From a virus, in IMG/VR virus record IMGVR_UViG_3300046169_000069: 64,000 bases of DNA. One strand, given 5' to 3'. The stretch's first letter is position 1; every line of letters starts with the position of its first letter. Under the pieces are notes generated by a model. The model did not search any database and had not been told where the DNA came from. It saw nothing but the letters and a program-made list of their open reading frames with translations. The translations under genes were made by a program, and so were the position numbers. Of the stretch, positions 15,167-59,991 are shown in pieces.

Positions 15167-15171
15167 CGCAT

Positions 15172-15197
15172 AAAAAAAGGGAGTCCGAAGACTCCCC
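15172..15197 (-). terminator. Intrinsic terminator after gp23
   Basis: GGGAGTC-TTCG-GACTCCC followed by T7. Confidence 0.92.
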
Positions 15198-27866: not shown

Positions 27867-30800
27867 TTAGTTGACTAGGTTACCGGCAGCGTCATAGACG
27901 TTGATACGGTAGTATGTAGGAGCTTGTCCACCCAGTGCGTTCGCGTCATGCGATTCCGCAACTGTTAGTGATGAAGCAGCTTCTACTTCGTCAATTGAAA
28001 TCTCACCAGTTGTTGAGTTGTAGTCGATACATAGACCACCAGATAGACAATCCTTAGTACGTTGTTCTGTCCAGTACTTGTTGATTGATCCTTCTGATAG
28101 GTTGTCTGTTGTCCAACTATTGATAGTTCCAACATTTGTTTCTAGTGAAGTGATGCGTGAACCATTACTACTGATTAGACCAGATAACGTTCCATCTACT
28201 GACTGGAATTCTGCAACGATCTCTGTTAGAGAATCTAGTGATGCAGAGTCAGTGTTAGATACGATGAAGTCAATCTGAGACTGTAGACTTGCGTCTGCAG
28301 ATACACGAGCACTTTCTTCAGCAGAGATATCACTTGACAGTGCACTTTCTGCAGCAGTCGCACGGGCAACTTCAGCAGCTAGTGAATCAGTCAGATCAGA
28401 ATCACCCGCGATGCGAGCATCTTCTTCTTGACTTAACTGGAACTGTAGTGAACTCTTACCTGCAGTCTCTTCCGCAGACAATGCGTCAATCTGAGATTGT
28501 AGTTCTGCGTCAGCAGAGTCACGATCAGATTCAGATGCAACGATTGCAGCCGCACGTGCGTTCTGTTCTGCGGTAATCGCAGCAGCACGAGCAGTTGATT
28601 CTGCAGTAATCGCATCCGCATTCACCTGTACCGCAGCAACACGCGCCACTGTCTCAGCAGAGATAGCGTTTGCGTTAGACGTTGTTGCAAGTTCAGTTGC
28701 GTCCATCTCACTTTCTAGAGTTGAAACACGTGCAGTCAATGCACTTGCGTCACCACCTAGATTAGAGATTACGGTCTGTAGATCAGAGTCAGCATCTTCA
28801 AATGCCGCGACAACTTCAACCAACTGGTTCAGAGTTTCTGGAGAACCGTTTGTGATTGCAGTTACTGCCGCATCTACCGCATTGATGTTCGCCTGAAGTG
28901 CATTGTCAGCAGATGTTCTTGCTAACTCTTCAGCATCAATTGCAGACTGAAGTACTGCATCAGCCGCGATACGTGCGTTCTCTTCTGCAGTGATTGCAGA
29001 CTGTAGACCTTGGTCAGATAGGATACGAGCAGACTGTTCTGAGTCTAGTAGTGACTGTAGAACACCTTCCGCAGCAGTTGCACGGGCAACTTCTACATCT
29101 AGTCCAGACTGTAACGACGCATCACCAGCAACACGTAGTGCAGCTTCAACAGCGATGTCTGAGTCTAGATCTTCTCTCATTGACTGATCTGCAGCAGAAC
29201 GTGCCGCAACTTCAGAAGTGATCTGAGATTGTAGATCTGTTTCAACACCAGTCGCACGTGTCTCTTCCGCGTCGATTGCACTTTGTAGTACACCTTCAGC
29301 AGTTAGGGCACGTGTCTCTTCTGCAGTAATCGCAGCAGCATTCGCTGTGTGTGATCCTGCGTTAGATGAGATTAGTGTCTGTAGATCAGAATCTGCGTTC
29401 TCAAATGCAGCGACAACTTCTACGATTGTATCTAGTGAGTCCGAAGAACCATTTAGAATCGCGTCAACACGTCCACTTACTGTGTCGATGTTAGACTGTA
29501 GAGTATTATCTGCAGTAGTACGTGCTGTACCTTCGTCAACAACCGCTTGTGCGTTAACCGCTTCAGCCGCAGTTGCACGAACGATCTCAGCATCGATCGC
29601 AGACTGTAGGTCTGAATCAGCGTCAGCACGAGTACTTGCTTCTGCAGCTTCTGCCGCTAGAGCACGTGACTCTTCCGCAGAGATGTCAGATGCAAGTGCC
29701 GCTTCCGCAGACGTTGCACGAGAGATCTCGTTAGCCAAGTTAGTTGTCAATACACCTTCTGCAGTTGTCGCACGAGATTCCTCGTTTGAAATCGCAGTAG
29801 AAAGTAGTGCATTTAGATCACTATCAGCTTCATCAACATATCGCTTGTTTGCAGCAAGATTTGCTGAAGTTGGTTCGTCAACGATTACTTGTGAACCACC
29901 GAAGTGTACTAGACCATCTTGCCAATCAATAGTTGATCCTGGCTGTTCTACCTTTAGTGTTCCTTCAACTACGATTTGGTTAGAAGCAATACGACCTTGA
30001 ATGTAATCAGTGAACTCGTAGTCTGTTCCGTTCCACTTCAAGAACTCACCAGAATCCGCAGCAGAAACATTCAAGTGTTGGTCGATCTCTGCCTTAGTAG
30101 CATTACCGAAACCACCACCAATGATTGTTGATGAACCGAAGTTTACTATAGAACCTTCGAAATCAACAGTTCCTGTTTGAACTTTCAGGTCATTCGATTC
30201 AATCGTGTCAATGAATGCACGGTTAGCGTAAACATCATTAACATCCTTGATGTTGTTCTGACCCATCTCAATGCCTACTGACAATGCGACATTAGAGTCG
30301 GAATCTACACTGATACCTGCAGTACGTGCGTTCGTTGCAGCAATTGCACTTGCATTTGAGGCCACCATTGTGGTAACGTCACTATCTGCGTCTTGGAATG
30401 CAGAGACTAGTTCAGTCAATGAATCCAATGCAGCTGGATCAGTATTTTCCTTAATGAAGTCAATCTGTGTCTGCAAGTCAGAGTCAGCAGCAACACGAGC
30501 ACTTGTCTCTGCAGATTCTGCAGCAGTTGCACGAGCAACTTCAGTAGCAAGATCAGCAGTTAGTACTGCGTCAGCCGCGGTACGTAGTGCAGCCTCATCT
30601 GAGTCAGCGTTCGCACGATCAGTTGCTTCAGTTGCAATTGCAGCAGCATTCTGCGAAATTGTTGAAGCGTTCGCAGTAATTAGGTTTTGGATATTGCTAT
30701 CCGCACCTTCAAATGCACTTACAACCTCTACAACAGTGTCTAGTGATTCAACAGAACCATTTAGAATCGCGTCGATACGAGCATTTGCAGCGTCAATGTT

Positions 30801-33800
30801 AGACTGCAGTGAAGTGTCTTCTGTTGTACGACTAGTTGCTTCTGTCGCGACAGTTGCATCAACGTATGACTTAGTTGCAGCGTCTTGTGCGGCAGTTGGA
30901 TCAGCCATATCAGTAATCTTGTTACCAGACATGTCAACTTCAGCACTCATCTCAATGTTAGATGAACCAGAAGATGTGCTTACACCAGCAACCTGTGATT
31001 GTAAACCTGAAATCGCAGTCGCGTTTGCAGATACGTCAGAAGTTAATACCGCTTCCGCACCTTGTGCACGTAGTGACTCATCAGCAATGTCTTGAGCAAG
31101 TGACGCTTCGACCGTAGTCGCACGTGTTGTCTCATCGGCAATTGCCTGAGCATTAACACCCTCAGCAGCTGTTGCACGTGATGTTTCAGCAGCAATGTCT
31201 GACGCAAGACCTGTTTCTGCAGATGTTGCACGGGCAACCTCAGCAGCAAGATCAGACGTTAGTACACCTTCTGCCGATAGAGCACGAGACAGTTCAGTAG
31301 ACAAACCAGCACTCAAATCAGAGTCAGCATTTGCACGAGCAGTTGCTTCATCTGTGATTGCCTGTTGACGTGCCGCCACTTCCGCATTAATTGCATTAGT
31401 GTTAGCAGTAACACTTGCACTGTTAGATGTGATCAACGATTGGATATCACTATCCGCGTTCTCGAATGCCGCAACCACTTCAACGATTGTGTCTAGTGAT
31501 TCACCAGCACCGTTCAAGATTGCGTCAACACGATCACTTACTGTCTGAGTAGTTGCATCAACATATGCCTTATTAGCGGCATCGGCTGAATCTACTGGAG
31601 CAGCAACATTGATAACACTATTATCCATCATGTCTAGGTCTGATAGTACTTGCAGATGATCAACAGATGAGTTGAATCCGATAGTACCAGTTCCGTCACC
31701 GAAGTATAGACCACCGTTGAATGTCGCTAGACCGTCAACTGTGATAGATCCGTCAGTGAAGTTTGCACCTAGATGGTTTGCAAGTTGAGTTTCTGCAGCT
31801 GTTGCACGAGCAGTTTCTACCGCGATATCCGCAGCAAGACCTGCTTCTACTGCTTCTGCACGTACTTTCTCAGTTACGACAGCGGCAGCGTTTGCAGCCT
31901 CTGCAGTCTGAGCACGTGTAGATTCTGCGTCAATGTTAGACTGAAGTGTGTTCTCAGCACCAGTCGCACGAGCAGTTTCTGCTGCAATTGATACTTCTAG
32001 ACCACTCTTATCAGAAGTTTGTGTACCAGACAATGTATCAATCTGAGACTGTAGACTTGCGTCACCCGCAGTGCGAGCAGAAGACTCAGTGTTGATATTT
32101 GACTGTAGTACTGCTTCTGCAGCAAGAGCACGTACTTCTTCAACACCTTCTGCAGTTTGTGCACGTAGCACCTCTGCGTCTAGTTCTGAGTGTACTTCGT
32201 TGATCGCTTCAACAACAGATGTTGCAGTTGTTTCTAGTGAAGGAACACCACCCTGTCCTGTTATTTTAACAGATCCTGCTTCTATTTGGTAAATACCAAT
32301 ACCAGTATCAGAACTTAATACAAATATGACACCATTGTCTTGAGTCGTAAATGGTAAAGATACTGTTGTAGGTACTGATCCCGCAGAAACTGTTGTTGAC
32401 GCATATACTGTAGCTGAAGACTGTAGATTTCCGGCGACAACAGTAATAGTCATGTCACTAGCAGCCTGCAGAACAGTCATGCTAAGTGTATAACTTTCAC
32501 CAACAACCAATGGAGTTGGTCCACTGTATGAGGTATAGTTAGATCCAATATATCCCCATATACCGCCACCAAGACCTGTCGAGTCTGGAGAAGGTACAGA
32601 GAATTTTATTTCTTGATCTGGACCCCAAGTAGTCGCACCTGCGGCTTGATCCCAGTACTGAGCACTGATATTAGTGACGTTTCTGACGTAGTTAGTCTCT
32701 TCACCCTTAACAAACGTGTCTAGATCAGAGATTGTCGAAGCGTTTGTAGTGATCAACGTCTGTAGATCGCCATCCGCACCTTCAAACGCAGCAACAACTT
32801 CTTGCAACGTGTCTAGTGTTTCTGGTGATGTACCAACGATGGCATCCAACTGAGACTGTAGACCAGACTCAACGCCAGTTGCACGAGCAACTTCCGCATC
32901 AACTGCAGCTTTGTACAGTTGCATCACCTGCAATACGTGCCGCCGCTTCATCTGAGTCACCAGCGATACGTGCCGCTGATTCCACTGAAACGTCACCACT
33001 TGCAGCGATGGTTAGGTTATCAATCTGAGTTTGTAGACTTGCGTCACCAGCAACACGAGCCGCTTGTTCTGCACTGTCCGCGTCTTCTAGATTTGATGTC
33101 AAAGTCTCAACAACATCTAGACGGTTAGAGTTAGACATTGCTGTCAACGCGCCAGAGTTATTGACGTTCTGAACCTGAACTTTCAGTTCTTCGGTCTTGC
33201 CTTCTAGATAGTTAATACCGTCAGATAGACTTGCGTTAGGTATGATAACTTCTTTGATCTCAACAGCACCGGAAGCGATCGTGAGGTCCAGATCATAAGA
33301 ACCAAGATTGCTAGTGTCCATACTCACAAACGATTCGCTGACTTTGATAGGAATACCTGACAAAGCCGAAGTGTCGTAAATATACAATGAACCAGATGTA
33401 GTACTATTATCATCATCTCCATGTGAAGAGACAACTAACTTACCACCTTCTACATCCAGACTATAACCAAAGTAATCGCTAGCGTTTCCGTCATATGCAT
33501 ATATTGTCTGAATATGACTTCCGTCAGATACGTCAAAGACTTCAACTTTACCTACATCTGACCCTTGTGCACCGTCCCAACCATAAGAACCTACGTATAG
33601 TCGAGTGTCGTCCAACGCAACAGATCTACCGAAGTTGTCCCAATCTTGTGAATCTGGAGACTGTAAAGCGTAAGCCATAGTTCCTGAAGCATACCCATCT
33701 GTATTTTTAGGATAAACATAGACAGCACCTCTACCGTACACGACTCCATTGTTATCATTTCTAGGACCGTAACGAGAACCTACGGCAACATAGTTATCGT

Positions 33801-36800
33801 TGAACGCAGTTCCGTTTGAGAAATGGCCAAAATTGCTTCCATCTTGATCATCGGACCACTGTCCATTAGGCGGCATTATTACAGAAGGTGTTGCCTGAAT
33901 ATCTCTCAGATCAAATATTGCAATGAAACTATTGTAGTTATTACTACCGTAGTAACTGTATCCATTAACTGTCACATATAGATAATCTTCATCGACTTCT
34001 ACTTGACGACCGAACTGAAGGTTATCATTCGAGTAGCTACTATTCGATCTCCAGAAGCTAGGAATCCCAGTAGGATCTAAAATGATAGGTTGACTTGTCA
34101 GATTGTTGATATCGTACAAATAAACTCTACCTGAGTTATCTTGGAAAGTTACGTTGTATGCATCTCTTCCAGTCCAATCTCGGCCCCATTCCCCTACAAT
34201 GATGTAGTTGTGATCGGCAGAACCGGTCACAGACCAACCAAAGTAATTATAAGCAGAAGTGTTTGAAGGTTTCAACACTACAGGATCTGCGCTAAGATCA
34301 TTTAGATCCCAAACATAGACTTCACCTGCGTTAGTCACATTGCCTGGATCTGAGTAATCATATCCAACGACAACTTTATCTCTTATGATTTTCGCGGTTC
34401 TTGGATTACCCATATTAGAAGTAGCACCAATATGACTACCATGACCTTCAGGAGATAAAACCGTTGGTGGTGACAATGGACTGTTCGCATCAAATACTAA
34501 TGCGTGACCACACGGAACGTCGGCGGTTGAAGCAGACACCGTAACGATATACTGATCTTGATAAACCCAACGTGAGACTTCAGTAGGCATATTTGGAACT
34601 GTTAGTCCCGCACCTGCGTGAATCTGATCATCAAGTGTTGCGATCTGTGTCGTATGCGTTGATACGATTGATGTGTTACCAGTGATTAGAGCCTGCAAGT
34701 CATTGTCTGCGTTCTGGAACGTAGATACAACTTCTTGTAGAGTGTCTAGTGTCTCTGGTGAAGTGCCAACGATGTTGTCGATCTGAGATTGCAACGCAGC
34801 ATCACCTGCCGCACGATCAGCAACTTCAGTAGCAATCTGGCCAGAGTGAACATCGATCTGTGCCTGTAGATTAGGTACAGAAGTATCTTCGATGACATCC
34901 AAACGTCCACGAACATCTACAAAGTCTGAATCGTGACCAGCGATGTCAGTTTGGTTTGTTGCGATATCGTCTAGGAACTGCGTGTCAGAACCAGTGATTG
35001 ACTGTAGAGATGTGTTCAACTCGTTGATTGCACCAACAACATCGGTAGCAGCTGTTTCTAGTGCTGGATTTGAAAGAGGATCTAAATCACTCTTCAACTC
35101 GTTGATTGCACCAGATAGAGTCTGACTTGATGTTGATAATGTACTGTTTCCGATTTCACTATGCAACTCGTTAATTGCACCATATATTGTTTTTGCGGTA
35201 GTTCCTACTGTAGTATCTAATTCATTATAATCCGATGAAACCACCTGACCATTTTCTAGAACAGCTGATCCCGTGCGGGTGCTTCTTAGATCATATTCGG
35301 TAAGGAGACTGCCATTGGAACCATAAAATCGAATCGCATCAAATGAGTAATTGTTACCAGTTAAATGTTCATCATAGGCTCGGCCGCCAGGAGCTGGTGA
35401 TATTGTATTACTTGGTATAATATTGTAGTCAGACCCCCAAGTTCCTGTGTGGTTTATTATCTGTTGGGCACCAGTGTTAGTGTGGAGCGGTACTGTCATA
35501 GTATTCCAATAACCAGAACTAAACTGAGCTCCACCGGAACCTAAAGTAATTCTCGTAGGAGATTCAATGCGGTACATAACATTTTCACCGTTTAGAATCT
35601 CTAAAGCATATACCGGATATCCATTTATATTATTAGCAACAGTATTTGGAATTGTAGCATAACTCTGACTATTAGTAAAATATAATGATGTCGTACTGTA
35701 CCCACTAGCGCTTACGGTACTAGAACCGCCACCGAAACTTACCATACCATGTTCTGTTTGATAATATTTCGGAGCTTTTGTTTGAGAAATAATATCTTTT
35801 ATTGATTGAATGTCAGAATCATTTCCACTGATTAAAGTTTGCAGGTCATGATCAGCATTCTCATATGCAGATACAAGTTCTTGTAGAGTGTCTAGAGTTT
35901 CTGGAGACGTTCCTACAATAGTGTCGATCTGTGACTGTAAACTCGCAATATCGCCGTCGTTTGAGGTGATTTGAGTTTGTAAGTTATTATCTGCGTTTTG
36001 GCGAGATAAAGTTTCACCAGAAGTATACTGTTCGAAGTATGCCACGTGTGCCGCATTTGCACTGTCATAGATTGATGACTGTTCTGCGTTAGCCGCAGCG
36101 TAGATCGCAGTCTGTTCTGCGTTAGCCGAATCATAAAGTGCAATCTGTTCCGCTTTATCAGAATCGTAACGTTGATCTTGTGCAAGCAGTTTGAAGTCAA
36201 TATTTGCTTCAACAGTTTGCAGATCTTGTACGATTGTAGATGAACCAGTAACCGCTTCAACAGCAGTAAGAAGTTCTTCTTTCTTAGCGTTCAAGTAGTT
36301 GACCGCAGCAGTTAGGTCGTCATTTGGATTGAATGTCTCTGTGACACTTAGGGTTACAGTTCCTGTTGCAGATACTGCAGGAAGTTTGTTTCCATAACCA
36401 AAACCAGTTTCTTCGATCATTACTGGATGTTGAAGAGAAACTCCCTCAACTCCATTGACAAGATCGGTGAAGTTATTCAGATCATGAATGTATATGGTTC
36501 CAGTATCTTCTGAAGTTCCACCAGACATTTTCATGTTTCGAGAAGTGATAATTAACTTATCATTTTGGATCTGAATAGAGGAAGGATAATCCCACCCATC
36601 TATATTAGATATTCCGCCCCAAGCGTTAGGAGCGAACTGATACACTCTCACATTGGAGAAATTATAACCAGAAAGTTCGCCACCTTTAAATTGTGCCTCA
36701 ATCCAACCAAAACTGCCAGGAATCCATGAATAATTATTACCACTACTTGGGAAGTTGTTGTTGAATAAGTCGTCTTTAGTGACCATTACAACTTCTTCTG

Positions 36801-39800
36801 TGCTTCCAAACACTAACCAGTCATCACTAACTGCAAGCTTTCGGTCCGAATTGTATAGGTAATATGCGTTAGAGTATCTTCTGTAAACCGAAGAATACAT
36901 CATACTGTTGTCGGTGCGGTAAAAAGGAGCAGCATTTAAGTTAGATGCGTCCCACACCATCAATCGGCCGTAATTATCGTGGACGTAGTATGATCCGTAA
37001 TTCTGTACAGCAGCAATCATAGTGTTACTTACAACGAAGTTGGACGCCACTACACCACCGTCATAGATAGAATCTTGCAAAGTAGTCACATAAGAAAGGT
37101 CTGTTCTATTATAGACAAATATTCTATCCTGGCCTGTTAAAGCGCCAACAAACACGTGAGTGTCGTTCCAATCTACTCTACATGCGAAACCATCGTAATC
37201 GTTTGACCCTAATGTTGGATAATTTACACCAGTTGGTAAGTCTTCGCTTGTTGTTTCAATGTAGATAGCGTTTCCAGAAACAAGTGATGGAACATCATAT
37301 ATTCTTGCACTGCCAACTACAGTATCAGTACTTACGTTACCGATAAGAACTTTAGAACCGCCATCATATCGAATTTGAGCATAATCATAAACAGTGCGTA
37401 GATCAGCATGTACTTCTGCGATAGGTAGTGAAGATGAATCTATCGTAGCAAGTTCGTAAACTAGGAAGTAAATCTCACGAGCATCAAGGCTGGTGTTGTC
37501 CAACCTAGCCATAACTATAACATGGTCACGAGTTATGAAGTTACCTTCTGGTTTAGAATTGTATGCCGACGGCAATACTACTCTTGTGCCTAATCCAGTC
37601 TGAACCGATTGGTTTTCAACATACTCTGCAGAAGTGTAGACAAAGAATTCGTCGTCACCTTCGATAACAGTGTAGTACTGATCACCAACATCTTTATTGT
37701 AAGTAATAGAAGTTAGTTCTTGTGGTAGAGCAATGTGACCTGTACCCATACGACCACGAATTTCGTTTTGTAATAGGTTTGTGTCTGCAAAAGAACCACT
37801 TACAGATGATGTGAAATAATTGTAATCGGAGTCGTGATCTACAATAAACTGTGCTTGAGACGCATTGACCGCATCTTCAAACCCTTGACGTTCAGCGTTT
37901 ACCGAAGCTTCGAATGCAGTACGATCTGCATTTACCTGATCAATATCAGCTTGAACTGCATCACGGTGTGCTTGACGATCCGCGTTTACAGATGCTTCGA
38001 ATGCAGTACGATCTGCATCTACCGCAACGATTGCAGCCGCGTTAGTCGCAATGTTTGCAGTGTTAGTTGCAACGTCTGCCGCGATTGAAGCGATGTCAGC
38101 ATCATTTGACTGGATTGCTGCCAAGTTTGCTTCTAGATCTGCACGTAGTTCCTGACGCTTAGCTTCCAAGTAGTTGATCGAGTTGCCTAGACCGGATGCT
38201 GGAATGATGGTGTCAGTAATTGTTTGCGTAACCGTTTCTGCTGGCGAGATCGCAATAAGACGACCGAAATTGCCAGAAGCTGTACTAGAATCACCTCGAA
38301 CTAAACGCTCAGGCGGTTGATCCATATTTGTTAGGTCATAAACAAACATAGCAGTACCGGAAGAACCAGCTACAATCAATCGATTGCTTTCTTCATGCAT
38401 CTGGTATGGGAAAATCCCTAGGTTGTTTTCTGGCGGTGTTATTACTAACGGAGGCAATAATAAATTATTCGCATCATAGATGAAAATAAGACCAACCGAA
38501 CTCGTAATTCCAGGCGTATTGCCCTCAAGTGTGCCTACAATTAATCTTGTGTCTGTTAATGCTATAGAGTATCCAAACTGAAGGTTATTTGTTGCATATT
38601 CTGCAGGCGGATATAACTTAGTATGTGCTTCATTCAGGTTATCTGGGTTAAACAAATAAACAGAACCGTGATTTGGTCCATCTATATCATCTCCATACGC
38701 ACCTACAGCAATACGTGTAGAAGAAACTTCGAACGAACCAGTAAGTTCGCCATTAGCCCAAGAGATAACGTCGGAGTTTTGATCGCCAGAAGTTAATTCA
38801 TGTCCATTGATCAAATGACCATCACTTTGTCGGATATCTAAAACCCAAAGTGCATCAACACCACTATATCTAAATGCACAAAGTTTATCGCCAAATACTC
38901 TCAGTTTATAATCGACTATACTAGCAATATTATATGTACTAGTTCTTAAGTTACTTCCAGATTCCGATAAAGGTTGTTTCCATATAGTATCCGTTCCTGA
39001 AGTTTCGTGCGCATAAATGTAATCTTCTGAAACAGCAAATCCATTTATATTTTGGTTTTCCGCAGTAGCATAAGATTTGGAAGCCGAAGTTATGCCCAGT
39101 ACTAAATCTGCCCATTCGTATCTGTACACTAGATGTCTATTGACATTCCAATTAATGAATAGAGCTTCACTGTTGGCGTCAATATGATATATGTAGTATC
39201 CGCTAAAGTAAACTTTTGCAACCGGAGTAGATGAATCGACACTATCATACACATAGACGTTATGATTATCAGCAGTCGCATAGAACTGACGGCCCGCATA
39301 CTCTACATCAAAGGTAATTGTCTCACCGATGTCTGGAGTAATTAGAGGAACGCCTTCAGCACCAATTGTTGTCTGTAGTGCAGCTAGTGTACCAGTGTTT
39401 GTGTTGATTAGACCCTGTAGAGTGCTGTCTGCATTTGAGTATGCAGTCACGATCTCTTGTAGAGTGTCTAGTGTCTCTGGAGAAGTACCAATGATTGCGT
39501 CTAACTGTGCTTGTAGTGCCGCGTCACCTGTGACGATTGCACTTGCGTTAGCCTGTTCTGCCAACTGAGCACGGACAACTTCTGCGTCTAGATTAGACTG
39601 TACTGCATTAACTTCATCTACTGTTGCACCACTTGCGGTTCGAGCTGCATTTTCTGCAACGATGTCATCGATCTGTGTTTGTAGACCCGAGTCAGCAGTT
39701 GTACGGTTTGAGATTTCTGTATTAAGTGCAGTAGACTGTGCAGAGATTAGAGTTGCTTGTGATGTCTGTGAAGATTCACGAGCAGCAGTTTCTGCAACGA

Positions 39801-42800
39801 TCTTCGCATCTAATGCATTGTCTGCAGAGATACGCGCTTGTGTTTCAGCAGTGTCTGCTGCCGCACGAGCGTTTGATTCGTCAACGATTGCACTTGCGTT
39901 AGTTGCATCACCAGCGATACGTGAAGTTTCTTCTGCAGAGATTGCCGCAACACGTGCGTCTGTTTCTGCCTGAACAGCTGTAGAAGTGGCACTATTGTCC
40001 GCCATTTCAGCGTGTAGTTCGTTGATCGCAGCACCAATGGTTTGTGCAGTAGTGTCTAGATTTGTTAGAACAGTTGAAACGTCGATTACGTCTTCATATA
40101 CTGCAGGCACTTCTTGTGAGGCGACCAAAGAATTGTGTCCGGCACTGACGGCGTAAGTTCTAGTGATTGCACCTGAAGTGGGTGTGAGACCAGTAGTGGA
40201 CTCATTATAGATCTTAACAGTTCCGTTGTCATCATTTTGTAAATAAACTTTACCGTTATCGACATCGACGAACTGTTTTTTGGTTGTGGAAATAGACCGA
40301 CCAAGATAAGATACTCCATTAGCATCCCAAGTCCATTCATGAAGATATGCATAACCTGAGACATGAGTAGTAACATATAGTTTATTATCAGTCATATCTA
40401 CATCAAACCCGTAACCTCGCCAGTAGGTATTCAAGTCGTTACTAGGGATAGTAGTATGTAACTCAAAAGTTTGACCTGTTACGTAGTTTTTTAAATTTAC
40501 TCTTTCATAGTTATTATATCCATCTTTGCGCTGAGACCATAAAATGTAATCTCCGCGAATATCAAATCCCCATACATTACCATTCCCTATGAAGGTATCT
40601 TGATTGTTGTATTGGGAAGTTGGGGATATCATATGTACACTGGATGGATTTGCACCATCTGTTACGTCCCAGATAGATATTCTGCCTTCTTCATAAGACC
40701 AAGTGTATCCTATAGCAATCTTAGTTCCGTCCTCGTTCATCTTTAGATAAACTTCTGTAGAACCTATGTTAGGTAGACCGTTATAAATTAGATTTGTATT
40801 AGAGTAAACTTCATTTCCTGCTAAATCGTATACTTTGAATCCTTTTTCAAAAGAAACAAATACATGCGTGTCGTTAGAAACGAGATTATAACCGAACTTT
40901 TGTATCGTTCCGCTAGATTCTAACACATAAGTGTAGTCTTCTGGGCCTGGGTTTGTTGATAGATCGTAGTGATAAACTCTACCAGTACCAGCGGCAGGGA
41001 TTGCGTCTGGCGCACTAACCCACAAATGGTTTCCTGTTTTCGCCACAGAAGCACCGAACGAACCCTGAGATCCGGATGGACTTGTGATGGTGTGGGTTAT
41101 ATTACCGGAGTATAAAATATCCCCCGTATATACACTAACAGAACCGGACTTAGCAACAGCCATTTCTGCTGGTGTTTCTGCAGTTACTAGGTTTTGACCA
41201 ACAACTGTGCTTACTTCGTGACCTAGGTATGATTCTAGAGATGAAATATCAGATGAGTTTGCAACCATCAACGCCTGTAGATCACCGTCAGCACTTTCGA
41301 ATGCAGCTACGATCTCTTGTAGCGTATCCAAACTTTCTGGAGATGAACCCAAGATCGCATCAATCTGTGACTGAATGCTTGATAGATCTAAGTTTGCTAG
41401 GTCCGAAGACTTCGCTAGTTCTACCCACTGACCAGCGTGTGCAAAGTATGCAGCACCCTCTGCGTGGACGTGTGCAAACATACCGTGATTTGCAGATGCG
41501 TCTGGTAGATCTGCCAATGTAGAGAACAATGGGTGTGTTGCACCAGTTGCTTCGACTTGGTTAATCTGATTTTGTAGATCTGTTTCTGCTGCAGTAGCAC
41601 GTGCAGTTTCTGCAGAGATTGCAGATGCATTTGCTTGTTCAGCTGATGTTGCGCGAGCTGCTTCTGCGTCTACCGCTGCCTGTACTGTTGCATCACCTGC
41701 AACACGAGCAGTTGCTTCTGCAGTGATTGCTGCTTCACGTGCTTCTGCTTCAGCTTCATCTCCAGCAACACGGGCTGCAGTTTCGGTTGAAATTGCACTT
41801 GTCTTCGCTGCGTTATTAGATGATACTGTTGCGCTAAGTGAATCGATTGCACTTTGTAGATCTGAGTCAGCATCTTCACGTTGTTGCTTTTCTGCAGCGT
41901 CAAAGAATGTGCGGTCAGAGACTTCTTGTGTCAATGATGCATTTACTGCTGTAATAGTAGAAGAGTTGCCTATGATTAGACCTGTAAGATCACTATCCGC
42001 ACCTTCAAACGCCGCCACAACTTCTTGAATTGTGTCTAGTGTTTCCGGAGATGTTCCAACGATTGCGTCTAGTTGTGATTGTAGAGCTGATAGATCTGTA
42101 CCAGTTACAGAGTTTAACTGTGATTGTAGATCGGAGACTGCAGCTGCACGTGTTTGTGCTTCTGCTAGGTCAGCAGCAATACGTGCTGATTGTTCTGCGT
42201 CTACCGCTGCCTGTACTGTTGCATCGCCAGCGATACGTGCTGCAGATTCGTCTGAGTCTGCATCAGCACGAGCACTTGCTTCAGCAACGATAGCCTGCAG
42301 CGTTTGCTTGTTCTGCAGATGTTGCGCGAGCAATTTCCGCATCAATTGCAGCACCACGTGCCGTTGCTTCCGCAGCGACTGCATCAGCGATATCCTGAGA
42401 TACTGCCTCACGTGCGCGTACGACTGTGAAGAATAACTTATTGTCACCTTCAGCAATAACGTCTGTGCTTGTTACTGCGATTGGAGTTGCAGTGACACCG
42501 TCGTATACTTCCCAACGATCTTCTAGTTCGTTCCAACGTAGCTGAACTGCAGGTTCGTCACCACGCATGATACGAATACCTGCGTTAAGTACCGGAGCAC
42601 CTGTAGAAACATTGCTGTTTAGATCGATGATATTGTCAGCGACTTTTAAGGTCTGACTGTCTAGAGTTGTTGTAGTACCCTCGACGGTCAAATTGCCTTC
42701 GATGGTTACATTATCTTCAAAGACTTTATCGCCAGTGATTGTACCGTCTGCATTTAAACTGTCAACATATTCTTTTGTTGCAGCGTCTGAAGCATCTACT

Positions 42801-49907: not shown

Positions 49908-50258
49908 TTACCTCGTGACCGAAGGGTTGACTTTTATCTTACCTTCTAGTATTCTTTCTATAATAGTATGACCGTCTTCATCAACGAAACTGATCTCAAC
50001 ATCATAGACGTATCTACCACGAGTGGATAGGGCATCGGTTTGCAAGTTAGTTAAGGATATTGTAACGATGCCCTCTAAAGGAGGAGTGGGTATTACAGCC
50101 GTGAAGTCAATTGACTCTGTACTTCTGTAAGTTTTTTTCAGTTTGGCGGCCGCTGAATAACCAGTAAGATCTTTCTTAGATCCGTCCGGATTCACTAACT
50201 CTATCTGTAGAGCTAGGTCCGAACCTTGATCAATTGTAAAATCTTCGTAAGTCGCCAT
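49908..50258 (-). CDS. BppU-like baseplate/fibre adaptor protein
   Basis: IDQGSD...DLTGY...A.L.K...G...ISLT..QT..L..GRYVYDVEI......RILEG.I.V.P.VT. Confidence 0.7.
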   Translation of the reverse strand: MATYEDFTIDQGSDLALQIELVNPDGSKKDLTGYSAAAKLKKTYRSTESIDFTAVIPTPPLEGIVTISLTNLQTDALSTRGRYVYDVEISFVDEDGHTIIERILEGKIKVNPSVTR

Positions 50259-50306: not shown

Positions 50307-51011
50307 TTAAACTGCAGAAATGTCGTCAAGAACCATCTCACGAAATTCTTCAGAAGTCTCTGACCAGTCAAATACATAAGAAACGGTAACACGCCAGTCA
50401 TCTGTAGATGCGGCATGATACATTAACTTTTCTGGTTCGTCATAGTGTCCGAAGTATGCAGCCTTACAAGTCCATACTCCTGGCGTGTCTTGACAGCGAA
50501 CAACTTCTTTCGTTTCTGGGTGAATGTAGTCAAAGTAACCAGAACCATCTTCTGAGTAAGAGAAGATAAGATTAAAACCTGGCGCATTTGCATTGTTATG
50601 CCATGAGATATACCCGCCCGGTGGATAGACTGCTGCAAGTGCATTGTGTTTAACAGACAAGAAGTTCATCATCTTGTCGTTTAGATCACGTAGGTGATGA
50701 GTCATGTCACGTTTAAAGATTGGGTCTGCATCTTTTTCAAACATCTTATGTGCGCGGTCAGATAGTTTGAAGTTATATCCAACCATCTCTTCGGGAAATC
50801 CATCATGTCCCTTTCCCATTGCAACGATGTCATTCATGTATCCTTCACCAACGTAGTATGAACGTTGACGAATATGTTCTGCTGCAGTCAAGTGACAGTT
50901 CTTTTCAAAACCCTGCATAGTATGCAATTTGGCATACTGGTCTAAAACCTCTAGCAACTCTGGGTTATTTACCTCTACGTGCTTTAGATATTGGTCGTTT
51001 ACCTGTGTCAT
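50307..51011 (-). CDS. DSBH / 2OG-Fe oxygenase-like protein, paralog of 14007-14654
   Basis: YPPGGYISWHNNANA.GFNLIF...YHAA.T..WRVT.SY. Confidence 0.6.
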   Translation of the reverse strand: MTQVNDQYLKHVEVNNPELLEVLDQYAKLHTMQGFEKNCHLTAAEHIRQRSYYVGEGYMNDIVAMGKGHDGFPEEMVGYNFKLSDRAHKMFEKDADPIFKRDMTHHLRDLNDKMMNFLSVKHNALAAVYPPGGYISWHNNANAPGFNLIFSYSEDGSGYFDYIHPETKEVVRCQDTPGVWTCKAAYFGHYDEPEKLMYHAASTDDWRVTVSYVFDWSETSEEFREMVLDDISAV

Positions 51012-51736
51012 ACGATTGGAGTATCCTTGTTCAACCCAGCCGAGAAGTGTCTTAAAATTACGGGTCCCGTCTCAGGTCGTGTTCTTGCCCAATTGAGGGC
51101 ATTGTAATAATTCCACCTCAAGTCATCATCAAAGATACCAACCTTGAGGTCCTTATACTTTTCTTCCTTCTCAGTTAACCACCAAAGCGAGAACTGATCC
51201 CAAGACTTGAGACTGTCTGCATACCCTTCTGGCCACCAAGAGTCGTTCATCTGTCTGAATGTCAAGTCCCACCAATCGTCCATGAATTCACGTACAATCG
51301 GTTTACTCATATCATACAAACAAACGCCACCGCATAATGTAAACTTCGCCATACCCTCTGGTGTAGAGAAGTCGCGTTCTGCGTAGATGTAATCTCTATC
51401 ATCTGTTAACGCAGAAAACACCACATCGTGGTCTTTCATCTCATCCCAAACTTTTACAATGTCTTCGTGCTCACATTCCATATCAGCATCAATGTACATT
51501 GTCAAGTCATACGGAGACTTTGCCATCCCCCACAACTTCGCACGGTAGTGATCATCACAAAAGATGATATCATCCGCGACTTCGCGACCACGATCATCAA
51601 TAAACCGTTCTTCGGTCACTAAACAAATCTTGCAATCCTCATAGTAATCTCTAATGGATTCGGCAAGATTCAATGCGTACAAATAAAAGTTGCGTTTCTT
51701 AGACGCAACTAACAAAAATCCTTTACTCTTTTCCAC
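51008..51736 (-). CDS. GT-A fold glycosyltransferase (GT8-like)
   Basis: A..LAESIR..., K.W....SPYD.TMYIDAD, GGV.LY, WDQ.SL, WNYY, ILRH. Confidence 0.75.
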   Translation of the reverse strand: MEKSKGFLLVASKKRNFYLYALNLAESIRDYYEDCKICLVTEERFIDDRGREVADDIIFCDDHYRAKLWGMAKSPYDLTMYIDADMECEHEDIVKVWDEMKDHDVVFSALTDDRDYIYAERDFSTPEGMAKFTLCGGVCLYDMSKPIVREFMDDWWDLTFRQMNDSWWPEGYADSLKSWDQFSLWWLTEKEEKYKDLKVGIFDDDLRWNYYNALNWARTRPETGPVILRHFSAGLNKDTPIV

Positions 51737-52291: not shown

Positions 52292-55200
52292 TTATGCAAC
52301 ACGTACGTATAATGTATATGTTTCAGTAACCTCTGTAAGCGTATCTGAAATCGTTGCACCCACGTAGTTACCCAAGAAAGATCTTGCATAGTTACCAACG
52401 TAATCTCGAGCATAGTTACCACCAAATGTACGTGAGTAATTACCTGTAAAGTCTCCAACATAGGCAGAGTCACGATTGCGTGAGTATGCACCAGAGTAGG
52501 CCGAGTTACGGACACGAGCGTATGCAGATACACGTACGCGTGAGTAGTTACCTACGAAGTCGCGTGAGTAAGTGCCAGTGTATTCACCAGTAAATGTACG
52601 TGAATAATCACCGACATAGTTGCCACCGAAGTCGCGAGTATATGTGCCAGTGTATTCACCAGCAAAGTCACGGGAGTAGTTACCTACATATTCCCCAGCG
52701 AAGCCGCGTGAGTAGTTGCCCGCATACTGACCAGAGAAGTCGCGAGTATATGTGCCAGTGTATTCACCCGCGAATCCACGAGCATAGTTACCTACGAAGT
52801 CGCCGACAAAGTCACTTGCATAAGCCCCAGTGTATTCACCAGCAAATGTTCTTGCATAGTTACCAGTAAAGTCTCCAGCAAAATCACGTGCATAATTACC
52901 AGCAAATGTTCTTGCATAGTTACCAGTAAATGTGGCATTATATGTTCCCGCATACTCACCAACAAATCCACGTGAGTAAGCACCAGTATATTCACCAACG
53001 AAGTTGTTGTTGTAAGTACCAGTGTATGCGCCTGTGTATTCACCTACGAATGTTCGGTTATAAGTTCCTGCGTATTCGCCAACAAATCCACGTGAATAGT
53101 TACCCGCAAAGTTTCCACCAAAGTCACGTGCGTAGTTTCCTACGTAGTTTCCACCGAAGTCTCCAACAAAATCACCGATAAAGTTACCAGCGAAGTTACG
53201 AGAGTAGTTACCAGTGAATGTGCGTGAGTAGTTGCCTGCAAAATCTCCAGCGAAGTCACGCGAGTAGTTACCAGTGAATGTACGTGAATAGTTACCAGCA
53301 AAGTTTCCTGCAAAGTTAGTCACACGATCACGAGCATATGTTGATGCGCGGTTGCGGATGTATGCAGAAACACGAGTCACGACATATGCAGAGTAACGAG
53401 TACGAGTAGATGTACGAGTATACTCACCAGTAAAGTTACCGGCATATTCACCCGCGAATCCACGAGCATAGTTACCTACAAAGTCACCTGCATAGTTACG
53501 GGCGTAGTTACCGATAAAGTTACCAGCGAAATTTGTTACTCTATCACGAGTGAAGTTACCTATGTAATCAGTAATTCGTGTACGTGCATACGAAGAGTTG
53601 CGATTACGCGTAGATGTACGTGTTGATGTACGAGTAAAGTTACCTGTGTAATCAGTAATTCGTGTACGTGCATAAGCTGAGTAACGTGTGCGTGTTGAAG
53701 TAATTGTCGATACACGTGTGAAGTTGCCTACGTAGTTTGTTACGCGATCACGAGCGTAAGCTGAGTTACGTGTACGAGTATAGTTTGTTGCACGAGTTCT
53801 TGCATAAGCACTGTAACGAGTACGAGTAGATGTGCGCGTAGATGTACGAGTAAAGTCACCAACATAGTTAGTAATACGAGTACGTGAGTAGGCACTGTAA
53901 CGAGTACGTGTTGAAGTACGTGTTGACGTACGAGCATATTCACCTACGAAGTCACCAGCATAGTATCCAGTACGTGTGTAGTTACCTGTATTGGTAAAGG
54001 TCTGAACACGATTACGAGTGAACGCACGAGCGTAGTTACCTGTGTAGTACAATGTACGAGTGTAGTAACCAGTACCTGTACCCGTACGTGTTGACGTACG
54101 GCTGTAATTGCCTTCATATGAGAACGGACGACTACGAGTATAGTTTCCTACAAAATCACCAGTAAAGTTGGTTACACGATCACGTGAGTAGTTTCCAGCG
54201 TATGAGAACGCACGACTTCGATTATACGTAGAAGTACGGGTGCGCGTATAGTCGCGAGAGTAGTTTCCAGCGTAAGAGAATGCACGACTGCGAGTATAAT
54301 CCTCTGCGGATACACGAGTTCGGGCATAGTCCCCAACAAAGTTGCCGGTAAAAGAACCAGCCGTGCCTTGAGTAACCAACCCATAGTAATAATTTTGAAA
54401 AAGTTGCATTTGGAGAGTGCCTCTTGAATAGGTCACTCCATTGTGCGTAATTGAAGTTGCGTTGGCGTTAGTGCTGGTCGCAATAGTCGTAGCGTTAATA
54501 ACAACAGAAGCTCCCGCAGTACTCTTTAACCAATATGTGACATATTGGGCGTACTGAGTAGTACTTCCCGAATTAACAGAAGTTCGGGTTGATGTGCGTG
54601 CGTAGTTGCCTACATACGAAGTACCGCCCGTAACTCCAGTATAGTTTCCTACAAAGTTTCCTGTAAAAGAACCGCCAGAACCACTGTAAGTAACGCCGTA
54701 ACGAGTTTCCAGCCCAAAGTTCTCTCGGAAAGTGCCTCGATTATACGTGACACCACCATTGGTTATTGATGTCATGGTGGTTCCTTGCGCTATATAGCGA
54801 CAGAAGAACCGCCCACATAAACAATTACAGTACTGGATTCATTATCAATAACCCAACCATCTGTCACTGTGTTGAAAGGACTCTCCGAATAATCGTCAGT
54901 AGCACCACCAGAACCTGTAGAAACGCGAGTAGAAGTTCGGGTGAAATCTGTACTAGTTGGAGTTCCAGTGTAGTTACCTAAATAAGATCCCGTTCGGTTT
55001 CGAGTAAAGTTTCTTGAATAGTTTCCGCCGAAGTTGCGCGAATAATTACCCAAATAAGATCCAGTACGAGTACGGCCGTAGTTACCTATAAAGTTGCCTG
55101 CGTAGTTGACATCTGGTTCGCGAGTATAGTTACCCAAATAAGATCCGGTTCGTGTACGCGCATAGTTACCTACGAAGTCACCTGCGTAGTATAGAGTACG

Positions 55201-57697
55201 AGTATAGGCTGGGGTACGTGCATAGTCTGCAGCATAGTTACGTGCATAGTTGCCAGTGAAGTCGCCGACATAGTACAGTGTACGCTGATAGTTCAAAGTA
55301 CGTGTTGAAGTACGTGTTGATGTGCGTGAATAGTTTCCTACAAAATCACCAGCATAGTTACCAGCAAAACCACGAGAATAGTTGCCTACAAAGTCGCCAG
55401 TAAATGTAGTCGCGTAATTACCTACGAAATCACCACCGTAGTTGCCTGCGAATCCTCGAGCATAGTTGCCTACAAAGTCGCCTACATAGTCTCCGACATA
55501 ATTTCGGGCGTAGTTACCAATAAAGTTACCAGCGAATGTGGTTGTATAGTTGCCTGTGTAGTTACCTGCAAAGTCACCAGCGTATCCACGAGCATAGTTA
55601 CCTACGAAATCTCCGGTGAATACTGTAGTGTAGTTACCAACGAAATCGCCACCGTAGTTGCCCACAAATGTACGTGCATAGTTTCCTACGAAATCTCCGG
55701 TGAATACTGTTGTATAATTGCCAACAAAGTTACCAGCGTAGTTAGTAACACGGTCACGTGTGTATGCAGACGCACGAGTACGTGTTGACGTACGTGCATA
55801 AGCTGAGTAACGTGTTCTCGCAGAAGTACGAGTAGAAACACGAGCATAGTTACCTACGTAGTTTCCTGCAAATCCGCGTGAGTAGTTACCTACGAAGTTA
55901 CGCGAATAGTTGCCTTGGAAGTTACGTGAGTAGTTTCCAATAAAGTTGCCAGCAAAATCGGTCACACGATCGCGAACATATGAAGAAACACGGCCACGAG
56001 TAAACTCACCCGTGAAGTTAGTCACACGATTGCGTGTGTAAGTAGAAACACGGGCACGAGCATAAGCATTTGCAAAGTTAGTGACACGGTCGCGAGTGTA
56101 GTTAGTGATGCGGGTTCGTGTGTAATCTGCAGAGTATGCTGATGTGCGTGTACGAGTTGAAGTTCTTGTATAAGCTGAGTTACGAGTACGTGAGTATGTT
56201 CCGGCATAAGCTGATACACGGTTTCGTGAATATGTACCAGAGTATGTACCTGTGTATGAAGAAACACGAGTACGAGCGTAAGTGCCTGAATAGGCAGAGT
56301 TACGAGTACGTGCATATGTACCTGCATAAGCAGAAACACGACCACGAGTGTATGCAGAAGAACGAGAACGCGTGAACGTACCAGTAAAGTTCTGTACGCG
56401 ATTACGTGTGTAAGTAGAAACACGTGCGCGTGAGTAAGTTCCCGCAAAGTAACCAGTAAATGCAGTTAGTCTATTACGAGAATATGTAGAGATACGGTTA
56501 CGAGCATACGCGCCAGAGTACGCAGATGTGCGTGTGCGCGAATATGTTCCAACGTATGTTGAGACACGGGTTCTCGCATAAGTGTCTGAATACGCGGATG
56601 TACGAGTTCGTGAGTAGGTTCCTGTATAAGAGGAAACACGTGTACGAGTGTAATCAGCCGAGTAAGTAGAAACACGATTGCGAATATAAGTCCCTTCATA
56701 TGAAGATGGTCGCGTACGAGTGTACTCTCCGACGAAATCTCGAGAATAGTTACCTACGAAATCTCTATTATATGTTCCTGTGTAGTCTCCAACAAAGGTG
56801 CGGGAGAATGTATCTACACTATTACGTGTGTATGTTGAAACTCTATCGCGAGTGTAAGCCGAAATACGCGTACGTGCGTATGATGAGTTACGTGTGCGAG
56901 AGTATGAACTATTTACAATAGTACGTCGGGTGTTAGTTGCATCACCAACAACAGACCATGTTCCAGGCAGTGTTGGTACACCTTGCGCAGCTGAACGGAA
57001 CTGATAAGATCCGATCGCACCGGCCGTCGCACGGAGGGATTTGACACGTTGACCAATAGTATATTTGATCTGATCATCCGACATTTCTTTGAATCCGTCA
57101 AAGTTGGATGACCCATCGTAACAAATAGCAACGGGACGCACTGCGTTAACCACAGGCATCGTTACACGTTGATAGATGTTGTAATTTGTTACTGTACCAT
57201 CACCGTGTGTGTCTGAGAAGACATTTGCGAGGAAGACCGTATAGTCTGCGCCAGGTGATGTACTAGAAAGTTTGAATGTACCGACATAGTCATTCTGGAC
57301 CATGTTACTGAGTACACGACTTGCAAGATTATCCAAATCTGGATCTACCATTTCGTAGAAGCCTGGATTTGGGGCCTGAGTCATAATAACCCACAGGACG
57401 AACAAAATCGGCACCAGTTTCATCTGCAACACCGCCCACCTGACGTAGAGGTGTGGTTACAGTTGTAGATGTGATATTAGTAATTGGGTGAGTGCCCGCA
57501 GATTCATTAAAATACGCGTCCGTAAATGAACCAATATTAACATCACCAGTTAAACTGATATCTCCGACTTCACCAGCAGATGCATCTGCTAATGCTTGTC
57601 CCACCGCATAAGAAAGATAGTTCTCTTCTAGCGGTGTAAATTCCTGTAGGTCACCATTAGTATTTTTAATTTTTAGTGGGATACTAGATGCTGACAC
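52292..57697 (-). CDS. ~1,800-aa self-complementary tetrapeptide-repeat protein (putative beta-ribbon fibre with two tip domains); three track ORFs joined across frameshifts near 57372 and 54792
   Basis: Late promoter upstream, globular N-domain, two 648-codon arms of [YFRS]-x-[RGST]-x units flanking a 2-domain loop, and a short C-terminal strand. Confidence 0.8.
52355..54298 (-). repeat. C-terminal arm: 160 tetrapeptide units plus 4 dipeptides
   Basis: YTRS RAFS ... FLGN YVGA; 1944 nt. Confidence 0.9.
54961..56904 (-). repeat. N-terminal arm: 160 tetrapeptide units plus 4 dipeptides (12-nt periodic coding repeat)
   Basis: YSRT RNSS YART ... YLGN YTGT; 1944 nt. Confidence 0.9.
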
Positions 57698-57816: not shown

Positions 57817-58284
57817 TTACTGTGGTGGAGTTGGCCAGTTAATGTCAGTTAAATTCTCAATTCCGTCAAGATTTTCTGTAATATCACGCAACTCTTGACG
57901 ATAACCTGCCCATGCATTCTTCATATCGAGTGATAGTGGGGCGTCTGGAATTTGCGTCCAATCTGTTCTCATCAACTCATTGTTGCGAGTCTGACGAATT
58001 TCGATATGTAAAGATTGTAAATTGATCTTCCAAGAATGACCGTCACGGTAAGCGTGTTCGTTCGGAGGTTCGCCAATATCAACGAAAGACTCTGACGATC
58101 TGTCATAAAAATTTCTGCGGACGAACTCTAATGGGGTAAGAGAGCCCATGCGTTCATCGCCAATCAATTCGAATCTACTAGACCCGTCTGGTTGTAAACC
58201 TAATTCAACTTTTAAAGTTGCCGGTTCTATCTGTAGGTTCATAATTGAACCGTTTGATTCATTAATATGTGCTAACCAACTCAT
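57817..58284 (-). CDS. Tail fibre assembly chaperone-like protein
   Basis: IR..RN..L..TDWTQ.PDAPL......W..YRQ.LRDIT......I.WP.PP. Confidence 0.85.
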   Translation of the reverse strand: MSWLAHINESNGSIMNLQIEPATLKVELGLQPDGSSRFELIGDERMGSLTPLEFVRRNFYDRSSESFVDIGEPPNEHAYRDGHSWKINLQSLHIEIRQTRNNELMRTDWTQIPDAPLSLDMKNAWAGYRQELRDITENLDGIENLTDINWPTPPQ

Positions 58285-59109: not shown

Positions 59110-59991
59110 TTAGAACCTTAACATATAATATGTGTAATTAATTGTACGGGCATAGTTAAAAGTTAATCCATATTCATCTTGTGCCGTTATTAAAACGCCG
59201 TTATTTGTTCTGGTGTAGTTTATAAATGACGTTCTGAAGTAAATATCTATAACAGATCTATTGGTTAATGTCCACCCAAAACTTCTAAGATCTAGTTCGT
59301 ATGTTGCGCTTGCAACATTTGCGGGGATAGTTATGCCGACTGTGCCTATCTCATTAACTAAACTTATTACTCTTTGACCACCGCCCCAGACTTCATTGCC
59401 ATTAGCATTTAATATTTGTATTCCATAGTCTCCCTGAGACACATCGACAATCGTTGTGGGGTCTCCTAAATCTACAGGGTTAATTTCGCTCTGTCTGGAT
59501 ACAGTATAAAACTTGTTTGAAGACATTGATGTCGAAGTCTGAGAACCTCTGGTGTAGATATACTCACCAACTTCAACTTGAATCGCCCCTTCGGATATCA
59601 GTCCGTTAAAAACTTCATCGCCGACCCAATTGATGACAACAGTTTTAACTCCGTCGCTTGAGTAGTCGGCTGGTTCATACCAATAGGATGATCCACCACC
59701 ACCTCCACCACCACTAGTCGTTTCGCCAGTAACTGCATATTGAACAGTTGTGAGGCCAGAAAAAGATTCGGTAGTTTCTCTGGTATACGTCACTCCCCCG
59801 AAACTATATTGAGTATCGGTTGTCGCAATTAAGTCCGTACCAACTTCATCTACGACAATAGATCCATTATATTTTATTGTCGTAGTGTATACCGGCACTG
59901 CGGAACCGCCATCAAATTGATATGTGGTAGTTATCTGCCAATAGTTATCTGTTAACGCAGTCCCGCCACCGATATTATCATCACCGATCAT
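59110..59991 (-). CDS. Putative receptor-binding minor tail protein with two small beta domains
   Basis: Two YW...G...(G)G..YTR..Y.V modules separated by poly-Gly, then GDYGIQI.N.NG. Confidence 0.6.
   Translation of the reverse strand: MIGDDNIGGGTALTDNYWQITTTYQFDGGSAVPVYTTTIKYNGSIVVDEVGTDLIATTDTQYSFGGVTYTRETTESFSGLTTVQYAVTGETTSGGGGGGGSSYWYEPADYSSDGVKTVVINWVGDEVFNGLISEGAIQVEVGEYIYTRGSQTSTSMSSNKFYTVSRQSEINPVDLGDPTTIVDVSQGDYGIQILNANGNEVWGGGQRVISLVNEIGTVGITIPANVASATYELDLRSFGWTLTNRSVIDIYFRTSFINYTRTNNGVLITAQDEYGLTFNYARTINYTYYMLRF

Follow-up and report, generated by a model that had tools for sequence, protein, structure and literature searches.

How is the far end of a fibre built when the protein chain appears to run out along one long arm and to return along another that mirrors it? 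This question is raised by the hairpin fibre gene (57697 to 52292, minus strand) in a 64,000-nucleotide (nt) stretch of viral DNA, the IMG/VR record IMGVR_UViG_3300046169_000069. We refer to the whole stretch as the window; it belongs to a T4-like marine cyanophage, and the gene is part of the tail-fibre module. A sequence-only reading had proposed that the loop between the two arms is a three-way junction, in which two homologous domains of ~65-70 amino acids (aa) are each carried on a short sub-stem. Our analysis upheld the two homologous domains and showed that each of them lies between arms that fit the pairing code of the main stem. However, the nested sub-hairpins are plausible but still a proposal, since an exchange of partners among the arms fits the code in six of six pairs twice and all arms were modelled with low confidence. 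We estimate the probability of a forked three-way tip at roughly 0.45.

The tip carries two homologous domain-plus-arms modules

The tip loop comprises aa 913-1132 (nt 54299-54960) and consists of modules A and B, each made up of a 5' arm, a domain and a 3' arm (Table 1). The arm strings named in the sequence-only reading (FTRT STRV STGS and the others) were each found at their place on the minus strand. The domains are larger than had been suggested (A has 80 aa and B 72 aa), although the confidently predicted core of B comes to ~65 aa.

Modules A and B could be aligned end to end with their arms included (BLASTP E 1e-16, 36% identity, 101 aa). When the domain cores were compared, the Smith-Waterman score was 93 (z 10), and this was reached in 0 of 2000 shuffles. 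Moreover, a profile built from five single-domain homologues only matched A with 46 bits and B with 22 bits, each over nearly the full length. Because the single-domain profile matches both domains, their relationship at the profile level is established independently of each other. The lack of such similarity had been set beforehand as an outcome that would speak against the two-domain tip. Thus, the sequence comparisons confirmed that A and B are homologous beyond chance.

Table 1. Features of the hairpin fibre gene and its upstream neighbour (window coordinates).
Feature	Coordinates	Strand	Remarks
Whole hairpin fibre gene	52292..57697	minus	1800 aa if read through both insertions (open reading frames, translations)
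N-terminal globular domain, aa 1-265	56902..57697	minus	93% identity to L003; boundary 56902 approximate
N arm of main stem, tetrapeptide units, aa ~266-912	54961..56901	minus	Antiparallel register i+j=2044
N-side junction linker PTSTD, aa 913-917	54946..54960	minus	
Module A 5' arm FTRT STRV STGS, aa 918-929	54910..54945	minus	92% identity to L003 orthologue
Tip domain A, aa 930-1009 (80 aa)	54668..54909	minus	The single tip domain of L003 and C48C1 is its orthologue
Two extra bases (TA within TATATA run)	54791..54792		Window only; domain A split between two frames
Module A 3' arm FTGN FVGN YTGV, aa 1010-1021	54632..54667	minus	
Inter-module linker TGGTS, aa 1022-1026	54617..54631	minus	Junction strand in a forked tip; hairpin turn in a tip with swapped arms
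Module B 5' arm YVGN YART STRT SVNS, aa 1027-1042	54569..54616	minus	
Tip domain B, aa 1043-1114 (72 aa)	54353..54568	minus	Predicted core of seven beta strands
Module B 3' arm FTGN FVGD YART RVSA, aa 1115-1130	54305..54352	minus	
C-side junction linker ED, aa 1131-1132	54299..54304	minus	
C arm of main stem, aa 1133-1780	52355..54298	minus	Antiparallel register i+j=2044
C-terminal tail, aa 1781-1800 (20 residues), and stop codon	52292..52354	minus	100% identity to L003
Upstream neighbour, tail-fibre assembly chaperone	57817..58284	minus	PF16778 E 8e-15 and several tail-fibre assembly PHROGs

The arms of the main stem are mirror-complementary

Both arms of the main stem consist of four-residue units, in which position 1 is Tyr or Phe and position 3 is Gly or Arg. 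When the N arm was read forwards and the C arm backwards, they matched in one ungapped register (i+j=2044) over ~650 aa. In this register 174 of the 174 Arg residues of the aromatic face stood opposite Y, F or G, as did 66 of the 72 Ser/Thr residues opposite F or G, compared to a mean of 56% and a maximum of 78% in the other 174 in-phase registers. Among the 324 pairs of the aromatic face the commonest were R-Y (104), R-G (56), F-S/T (49) and Y-G (39), followed by F-G (17), G-S (17) and F-R (14); G-G was found once, and R-R and Y-Y were not found at all.

The mirror diagonal was then sought in homologous loci with a pair matrix trained on L002, an IMG/VR contig nearly identical to the window. 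The same single ungapped full-length diagonal was present in L003, L004, L006, L008, L010, L020, L027, L029, L035 and L040, where it scored ~1.7-3 times as high as the runner-up. The arms of these proteins measure 665 aa in L003, 939 in L004, 586 in L006, 774 in L008, 655 in L010, 632 in L020, 651 in L027, 645 in L029, 444 in L035 and 282 in L040. As a single full-length diagonal is kept throughout, the two arms always change length together. In L040 (aa 556-560) and L035 (aa 704-711), which lack a tip domain, a Gly-rich turn of only 3 and 6 residues, respectively, connects the arms; these proteins are the simplest natural hairpins of the fibre family. These data provide strong sequence evidence that the two arms lie antiparallel against each other; they would probably form a two-stranded beta-ribbon.

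A palindrome in the DNA does not account for the complementarity. The fibre gene contains one trivial 15-nt inverted repeat, and in the mirror register only 19-34% of the bases are complementary, i.e. there is no base complementarity at the DNA level. Thus, this explanation could be ruled out.

A constant i+j would be equally satisfied by an antiparallel homodimer, in which the N arm of one chain lies against the C arm of another and residues 913-1132 lie at the centre of a symmetric rod. As a rule, phage fibres are oligomeric, and the path of the chain was resolved by no prediction. Nevertheless, we regard this arrangement as improbable. The short turns that connect the arms of L040 and L035 favour a fold-back within one chain, and the stems of L020 and C48C1 reach right up to a small inserted domain. 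In addition, conserved ends together with a hypervariable middle fit a polarity of base and tip, and a fibre that has to connect virion and host would not usually be a rod with two identical ends.

Possible pairing of the arms at the tip

The proposed sub-stems obey the code of the main stem. With own-arm pairing, module A gave 6 of 6 aromatic-face code pairs (i+j=1938), and module B gave 6 good and 2 marginal pairs (i+j=2156), although a fit of this kind is weak, because it also arises by chance (see below). Comparison with the single-domain relatives favours the fork. In all of them the flanking arms fit the code in a register that closes directly on the domain (6 pairs in L003, 6 in L019, 4 in L036, 10 in C48C1 and 11 in L021), and in C48C1 and L020 the flanking arms sit on the diagonal of the main stem. 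Arm length co-varies between the two sides of a domain: A and L003 have 3/3 units, C48C1 and L021 have 5/5, and B has 4/4. When L002 was aligned with L003 (86% identical overall), the stalk of A was conserved and module B appeared as an insertion just 3' of it. Taken together, the homology of the modules and the co-varying arm lengths favour a fork in which each domain would keep its own paired arms.

It could also be argued that no sub-stems exist: the short repeats on either side of A and B would then be no more than flexible spacers that remained after a tandem duplication, with the domains strung as beads on a loop. The six-pair code fit is by itself not significant, and the low confidence with which the arms are predicted would agree with such disorder. 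We find this scenario very doubtful, however, since the arms have been conserved more than the domain cores after an old duplication (the 5' arm of A is 92% identical to that of L003, but domain A only 42%), their lengths co-vary across seven modules, and the flanking arms of C48C1 and L020 share the diagonal of the main stem.

Several observations weigh against the forked tip. The code is degenerate, as it is satisfied by 26% of random in-phase arm windows of six pairs, compared to 60% in the true register. Other pairings are also available. The 5' arm of A and the 3' arm of B match in 6 of 6 pairs at i+j=2043, only one residue off the main register, and so do the 3' arm of A and the 5' arm of B around TGGTS (i+j=2047). 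This swapped pairing fits equally well because both 5' arms are of the Arg type and both 3' arms of the Gly type. A third alternative places the 3' arm of A against the C arm at 1139-1157, with 10 pairs. In log-odds totals the fork reached ~18-22 bits and the swapped pairing ~15 bits, a difference that was not decisive; within the tip, noise contributed by the globular domains overwhelmed the scoring of stems, which did not rank the topologies. Structure prediction did not separate them either. AlphaFold2 applied to the tip (aa 866-1178) as a single sequence gave a mean predicted local distance difference test score (pLDDT) of 31, which is unusable, and with a 7-row alignment every arm remained below 50; hence, the search of these models for nested sub-hairpins yielded no usable answer. 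Since the two-domain tip is confined to one lineage, it offers no cross-species covariation for the fork. We know of no other isolated ribbon in which two strands run for ~650 residues each. Finally, both the oligomeric state of the fibre and the binding function of the tip are inferred.

Two further attempts were neutral. In the two-domain alignment (A2) every homologue was placed on domain A, and when the two halves of the tip were predicted as a complex from separate alignments, the score was 0.00, which speaks neither for nor against the fork.

If the arms were swapped, the main stem would continue through the 5' arm of A and the 3' arm of B after an internal loop of 6/7 residues, whereas the 3' arm of A and the 5' arm of B would make a local hairpin around TGGTS; alternatively, all four arms could build a four-stranded sheet under a compact two-domain head. 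The two swapped pairings score 8.2 and 7.1 bits, comparable with the 7.7 and 10.2 bits of the fork, and the aromatic-face parity of the four arms permits a single common sheet. The only arm strands in the single-sequence model also joined the 3' arm of A to the 5' arm of B, but at a pLDDT below 50 this carries no weight. We nevertheless consider a swapped tip less likely than the fork. The arms of a module must pair with each other in all single-domain relatives, and arm lengths match within the modules (12/12 and 16/16 aa) and not across them. Moreover, F-G, the outermost pair of the A stalk, is replaced by Y-R in the B stalk. Given the counts in the main stem (17 F-G, 14 F-R, 39 Y-G and 104 Y-R), this change favours own-arm over swapped pairing by ~3 to 1. 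If the termini of each domain are adjacent, as they have to be in the single-domain relatives, the four arms would converge with either pairing and could share one small sheet, which the parity of the aromatic face would allow.

Distribution and variability of the tip domains

The sequence-only reading had called for a comparison of the number of tip domains across homologues. A six-frame search of all retrieved homologous loci with a hidden Markov model of the tip domain revealed that this number varies between 0, 1 and 2. Two tip domains were detected in the window and L002 only, and one was found in L003, L019/L020, L021, L036 and C48C1. There was none in L004, L006, L008, L010, L012, L029, L035 and L040, which have only an irregular or tight turn. 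L027 carries a divergent domain that was judged by eye to be of the same type, and L023 and L026 have larger loops with a related opening motif.

Among ~50,000 GenBank phage records the fibre family was found in C48C1 only. In contrast to this scarcity in GenBank, the tip is common in seawater metagenomes, where it was present in 20 runs from 19 studies. A word-indexed homologue search with the tip region gave no match. An exhaustive search of representatives retrieved one true fragment (P0007); three repeat proteins returned by the same search were rejected as spurious matches.

In C48C1 (L001) the homologous gene (5138-15181, minus strand) encodes 3347 aa. Its mirror register is kept in blocks (865-1299 with 1367-1801 and 575-854 with 2127-2406), and large globular inserts occur in the C arm only, where, for example, ~325 aa are set against only 10 aa in the N arm. 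Further along there are four more domains, each 110-170 aa long. Since the inserts are restricted to the C arm, the scaffold tolerates domains displayed sideways from one strand.

The conservation of the fibre is uneven along its length. Between L002 and L003 the identity is 93% in the N domain, ~90% in the arms and 100% in the C tail, compared to 42% in domain A; module B is absent from L003, and indels occur in the distal stem. A similar picture emerged from co-existing alleles in two seawater metagenomes, a small contig-based sample that was compared with no formal ratio of non-synonymous to synonymous substitution rates: 19 nt differences in module A led to 15 amino-acid changes, against 1 in domain B. 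Within window positions 54643-54915, both X2 and X3 (two of the seawater runs) contain a second allele with roughly one third of the depth, whose 12 differences lie in the C-terminal half of domain A. Another contig from X2 shows 7 differences, which are located in the 5' arm of A and the N-terminal half of the domain that follows it. Almost every one of these differences alters the encoded residue, and domain B is almost invariant. Domain A is thus the hotspot of microdiversity and divergence in the fibre, where non-synonymous changes are concentrated. The tip is the most variable part of the protein, which suits the usual signature of a receptor-binding tip, and the tip domains are likely to be host-recognition elements.

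Predicted fold of the tip domain

The fold was modelled on aa 1005-1135, which include the 3' arm of A, module B and the start of the C arm, so that the 3' arms of A and B compete for the 5' arm of B. With the 7-row alignment, whose rows were natural modules, AlphaFold2 predicted domain B at a pLDDT of 83-95 across aa ~1047-1111. The model is all-beta, with seven strands and a long terminal hairpin that bears the conserved motifs GVTY.RGT and YYG.

No clear relative of this model was detected. A Foldseek search against the PDB produced no match at E <=0.001, a wide VIA-align search reached a best Z of 3.7, and the best match in BFVD had an E of 0.3. Another BFVD row, a Gp38-domain protein of Rhizobium phage RL2RES, was weak (E 0.6, template modelling score 0.30) and had no counterpart in the PDB searches. 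The feature Atlas returned unnamed viral clusters only, below the recognition mark.

Domains resembling that of the tip were observed elsewhere. Two genes upstream of the fibre, a gene at 59110-59991 (minus strand) encodes a 293-aa product with two tip-domain-like modules separated by a poly-Gly linker. The single-domain profile matched its aa 114-170 with an independent E value of 9e-5, and aa 16-94 with only 0.33; in the pairwise comparison with domain A, module 1 of this protein gave a z of 4.9. The larger loop domains of L023 (aa ~700-830) and L026 (aa ~680-780) open with W.L.W/Y, which is followed by V.NGVL, a motif reminiscent of the beginning of both the small tip domain and the C48C1 shaft inserts. 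There are sequence hints that these loops, the small tip domain and the C48C1 shaft inserts may belong to one broader domain superfamily.

Proposed architecture and comparison with known systems

The gene product is a tail-fibre-type protein of a T4-like cyanophage. It shows two features of this class, as it lies in a tail-fibre module with assembly chaperones and has a conserved proximal and a variable distal part. In the architecture that we propose, the chain would run out along an arm of four-residue units ~650 residues long, turn, and return along an equal arm. Most probably the two arms would be laid against each other in an antiparallel beta-ribbon, with each large residue (Tyr, Phe or Arg) on one of its faces set opposite a small one or a stacking partner. 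Because the chain folds back on itself, the N domain and the C tail would come together at the base, and the middle of the chain would be the far end of the fibre. The N-terminal domain would then presumably mark the virion-proximal end, and conserved termini that meet at the base would fit attachment to the virion.

Ancestrally, the far end may have carried one small all-beta domain of ~65-80 aa, placed between STRx units of the Arg type (5' arm) and FxGN units of the Gly type (3' arm); the two arms closed directly on it. In the lineage of the window and L002 the whole module occurs twice in tandem, with module B inserted just 3' of the stalk of A. Each domain most probably would retain its own stalk of 3-4 units, resulting in a forked three-way tip, or else the four arms would constitute one small sheet beneath both domains. 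The domains would be the likely host-recognition elements, with domain A evolving fast.

More broadly, it may be, and we put this forward tentatively, that we are dealing with a family of virus fibres in which a code of pairing side chains directs the folding of two strands, each extending over hundreds of residues, on an RNA-like scaffold that accepts self-contained domain-plus-arms modules as side branches, and that the tip of the window would be the first protein three-way beta-ribbon junction. If so, receptor-binding heads could be added, lost or multiplied at the tip (0, 1 or 2) or on the shaft (as in C48C1) while the register of the stem stays undisturbed. The novelty would lie mainly in the parent hairpin; what the tip specifically adds is that the domain travels with its own complementary arms, two units of which stand in tandem. 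It would thereby illustrate how such a scaffold evolves, as a domain with two matching arms can be inserted in tandem. If the arms indeed pair, the architecture would be without a described counterpart: one chain folded back, with the receptor-binding end in mid-sequence, and a fibre that might reach up to ~200 nm (as estimated from ~650 residues per strand) with its register held by a large-against-small and cation-pi code. This offers a model, concrete and testable, of how abundant marine cyanophages change their host range and possibly a design principle for long programmable beta-ribbon materials. The fibre arms, on which structure predictors fail, also provide them with a well-defined hard case.

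Our searches, within their limits, did not uncover any family, solved structure or paper describing the fibre repeats or the architecture, and nothing relevant was found in the literature on the repeat type, cyanophage fibres, the name C48C1 or the literal motifs. Nevertheless, several known systems share some of the features. Like the long tail fibre tips of other phages (T4 gp37 with gp38, T5 pb1), the window fibre is encoded in a tail-fibre module, adjoins an assembly chaperone, has a conserved attachment end, and carries small hypervariable distal domains that are exchanged, lost or multiplied among close relatives. However, it has no sequence or clear fold similarity to gp37/gp38 or pb1, its distal end is the middle of the chain and not the C terminus, and its shaft consists of four-residue units with long-range antiparallel complementarity and is probably not a trimeric beta-helix or coiled coil.

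The central sheet of Borrelia OspA and the E-G5 repeats of staphylococcal SasG, examples of single-layer and two- or three-stranded beta-sheet rods, are elongated beta structures that lack a conventional hydrophobic core and are stabilised by aromatic/charged cross-strand ladders. They are short sheets composed of local hairpins, and we know of none with two strands of ~650 residues, a residue-pairing code or branch points. Rods of this type gave no match in the fold searches, which covered the tip domain only. YD/Rhs repeat proteins are likewise rich in Tyr, Arg and Gly and built of beta-hairpins, and they appeared in the structure searches at noise level (Z 2.8-2.9). However, the hairpins of YD repeats are local, ~20 residues long, and assemble into a shell; they have neither a period of four nor long-range mirror complementarity.

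By analogy only, RNA stem-loops with multiloops also have antiparallel-complementary arms whose length changes are compensated across homologues, and modules inserted in them likewise bring their own complementary flanks. In the fibre, however, the partners are side chains on a beta-ribbon and the pairing is degenerate, such that any Arg-type arm fits any Gly-type arm. As the pairing alphabet is degenerate, short fibre stems are not specified in the way that RNA helices are.

Integrity of the fibre gene and its genome context

In the window the fibre gene is broken into three open reading frames (ORFs) by insertions near 57374 and at 54791-54792. L002, which is 98.4% identical to the window across 11 kb, contains a single intact 1800-aa ORF (L002:9677-15076) that differs from the read-through window protein by 7 substitutions; compared with it, the window contains a single additional base near 57374 and two (TA) at 54791-54792. 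The latter two bases were also absent from the contigs of all four seawater metagenome runs compared, which come from four different studies, and one metagenome contig that covers both tip domains shows only three other differences. The intact ORF and these four runs justify the frame correction, and the frame-corrected loop assumed in the sequence-only reading was therefore right. Judging from these alignments, the breaks in the fibre gene are private to the window assembly and most likely errors. Across the structural module the window differs from L002 by five frameshifting insertions of 1-2 nt in short runs (~57374, 54791-54792, ~51974, ~49691 and ~47374), each of which breaks an ORF that is whole in L002. 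The three outside the fibre gene are single bases in neighbouring genes, and all five are probably assembly errors.

The fibre protein has no Pfam family, its only PHROGs match was phrog_15773 (unknown function, E 2e-7), and a sequence search of the PDB returned nothing below E 0.4; none of these searches linked it to a described shaft repeat such as those of the triple beta-helix, triple beta-spiral or coiled coil. The only GenBank relative of this stretch of the window is Phage C48C1 (Kyanoviridae), in which the syntenic gene is annotated as a 3347-aa hypothetical protein and is flanked by genes annotated as tail fibre or fibre assembly. The two genes downstream of the fibre (50307-51011 and 51008-51736, minus strand) matched no Pfam or PHROGs family at E <=0.001. 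The gene at 49908-50258, also downstream, encodes an LtfC-like assembly protein (phrog_3304, E 2e-16). Further giant ORFs were observed at 27867-32999 and 32899-42456 (minus strand; 1710 and 3185 aa), the first of which is rich in Ala, Glu, Ser and Thr and contains recurring blocks typical of a coiled-coil fibre.

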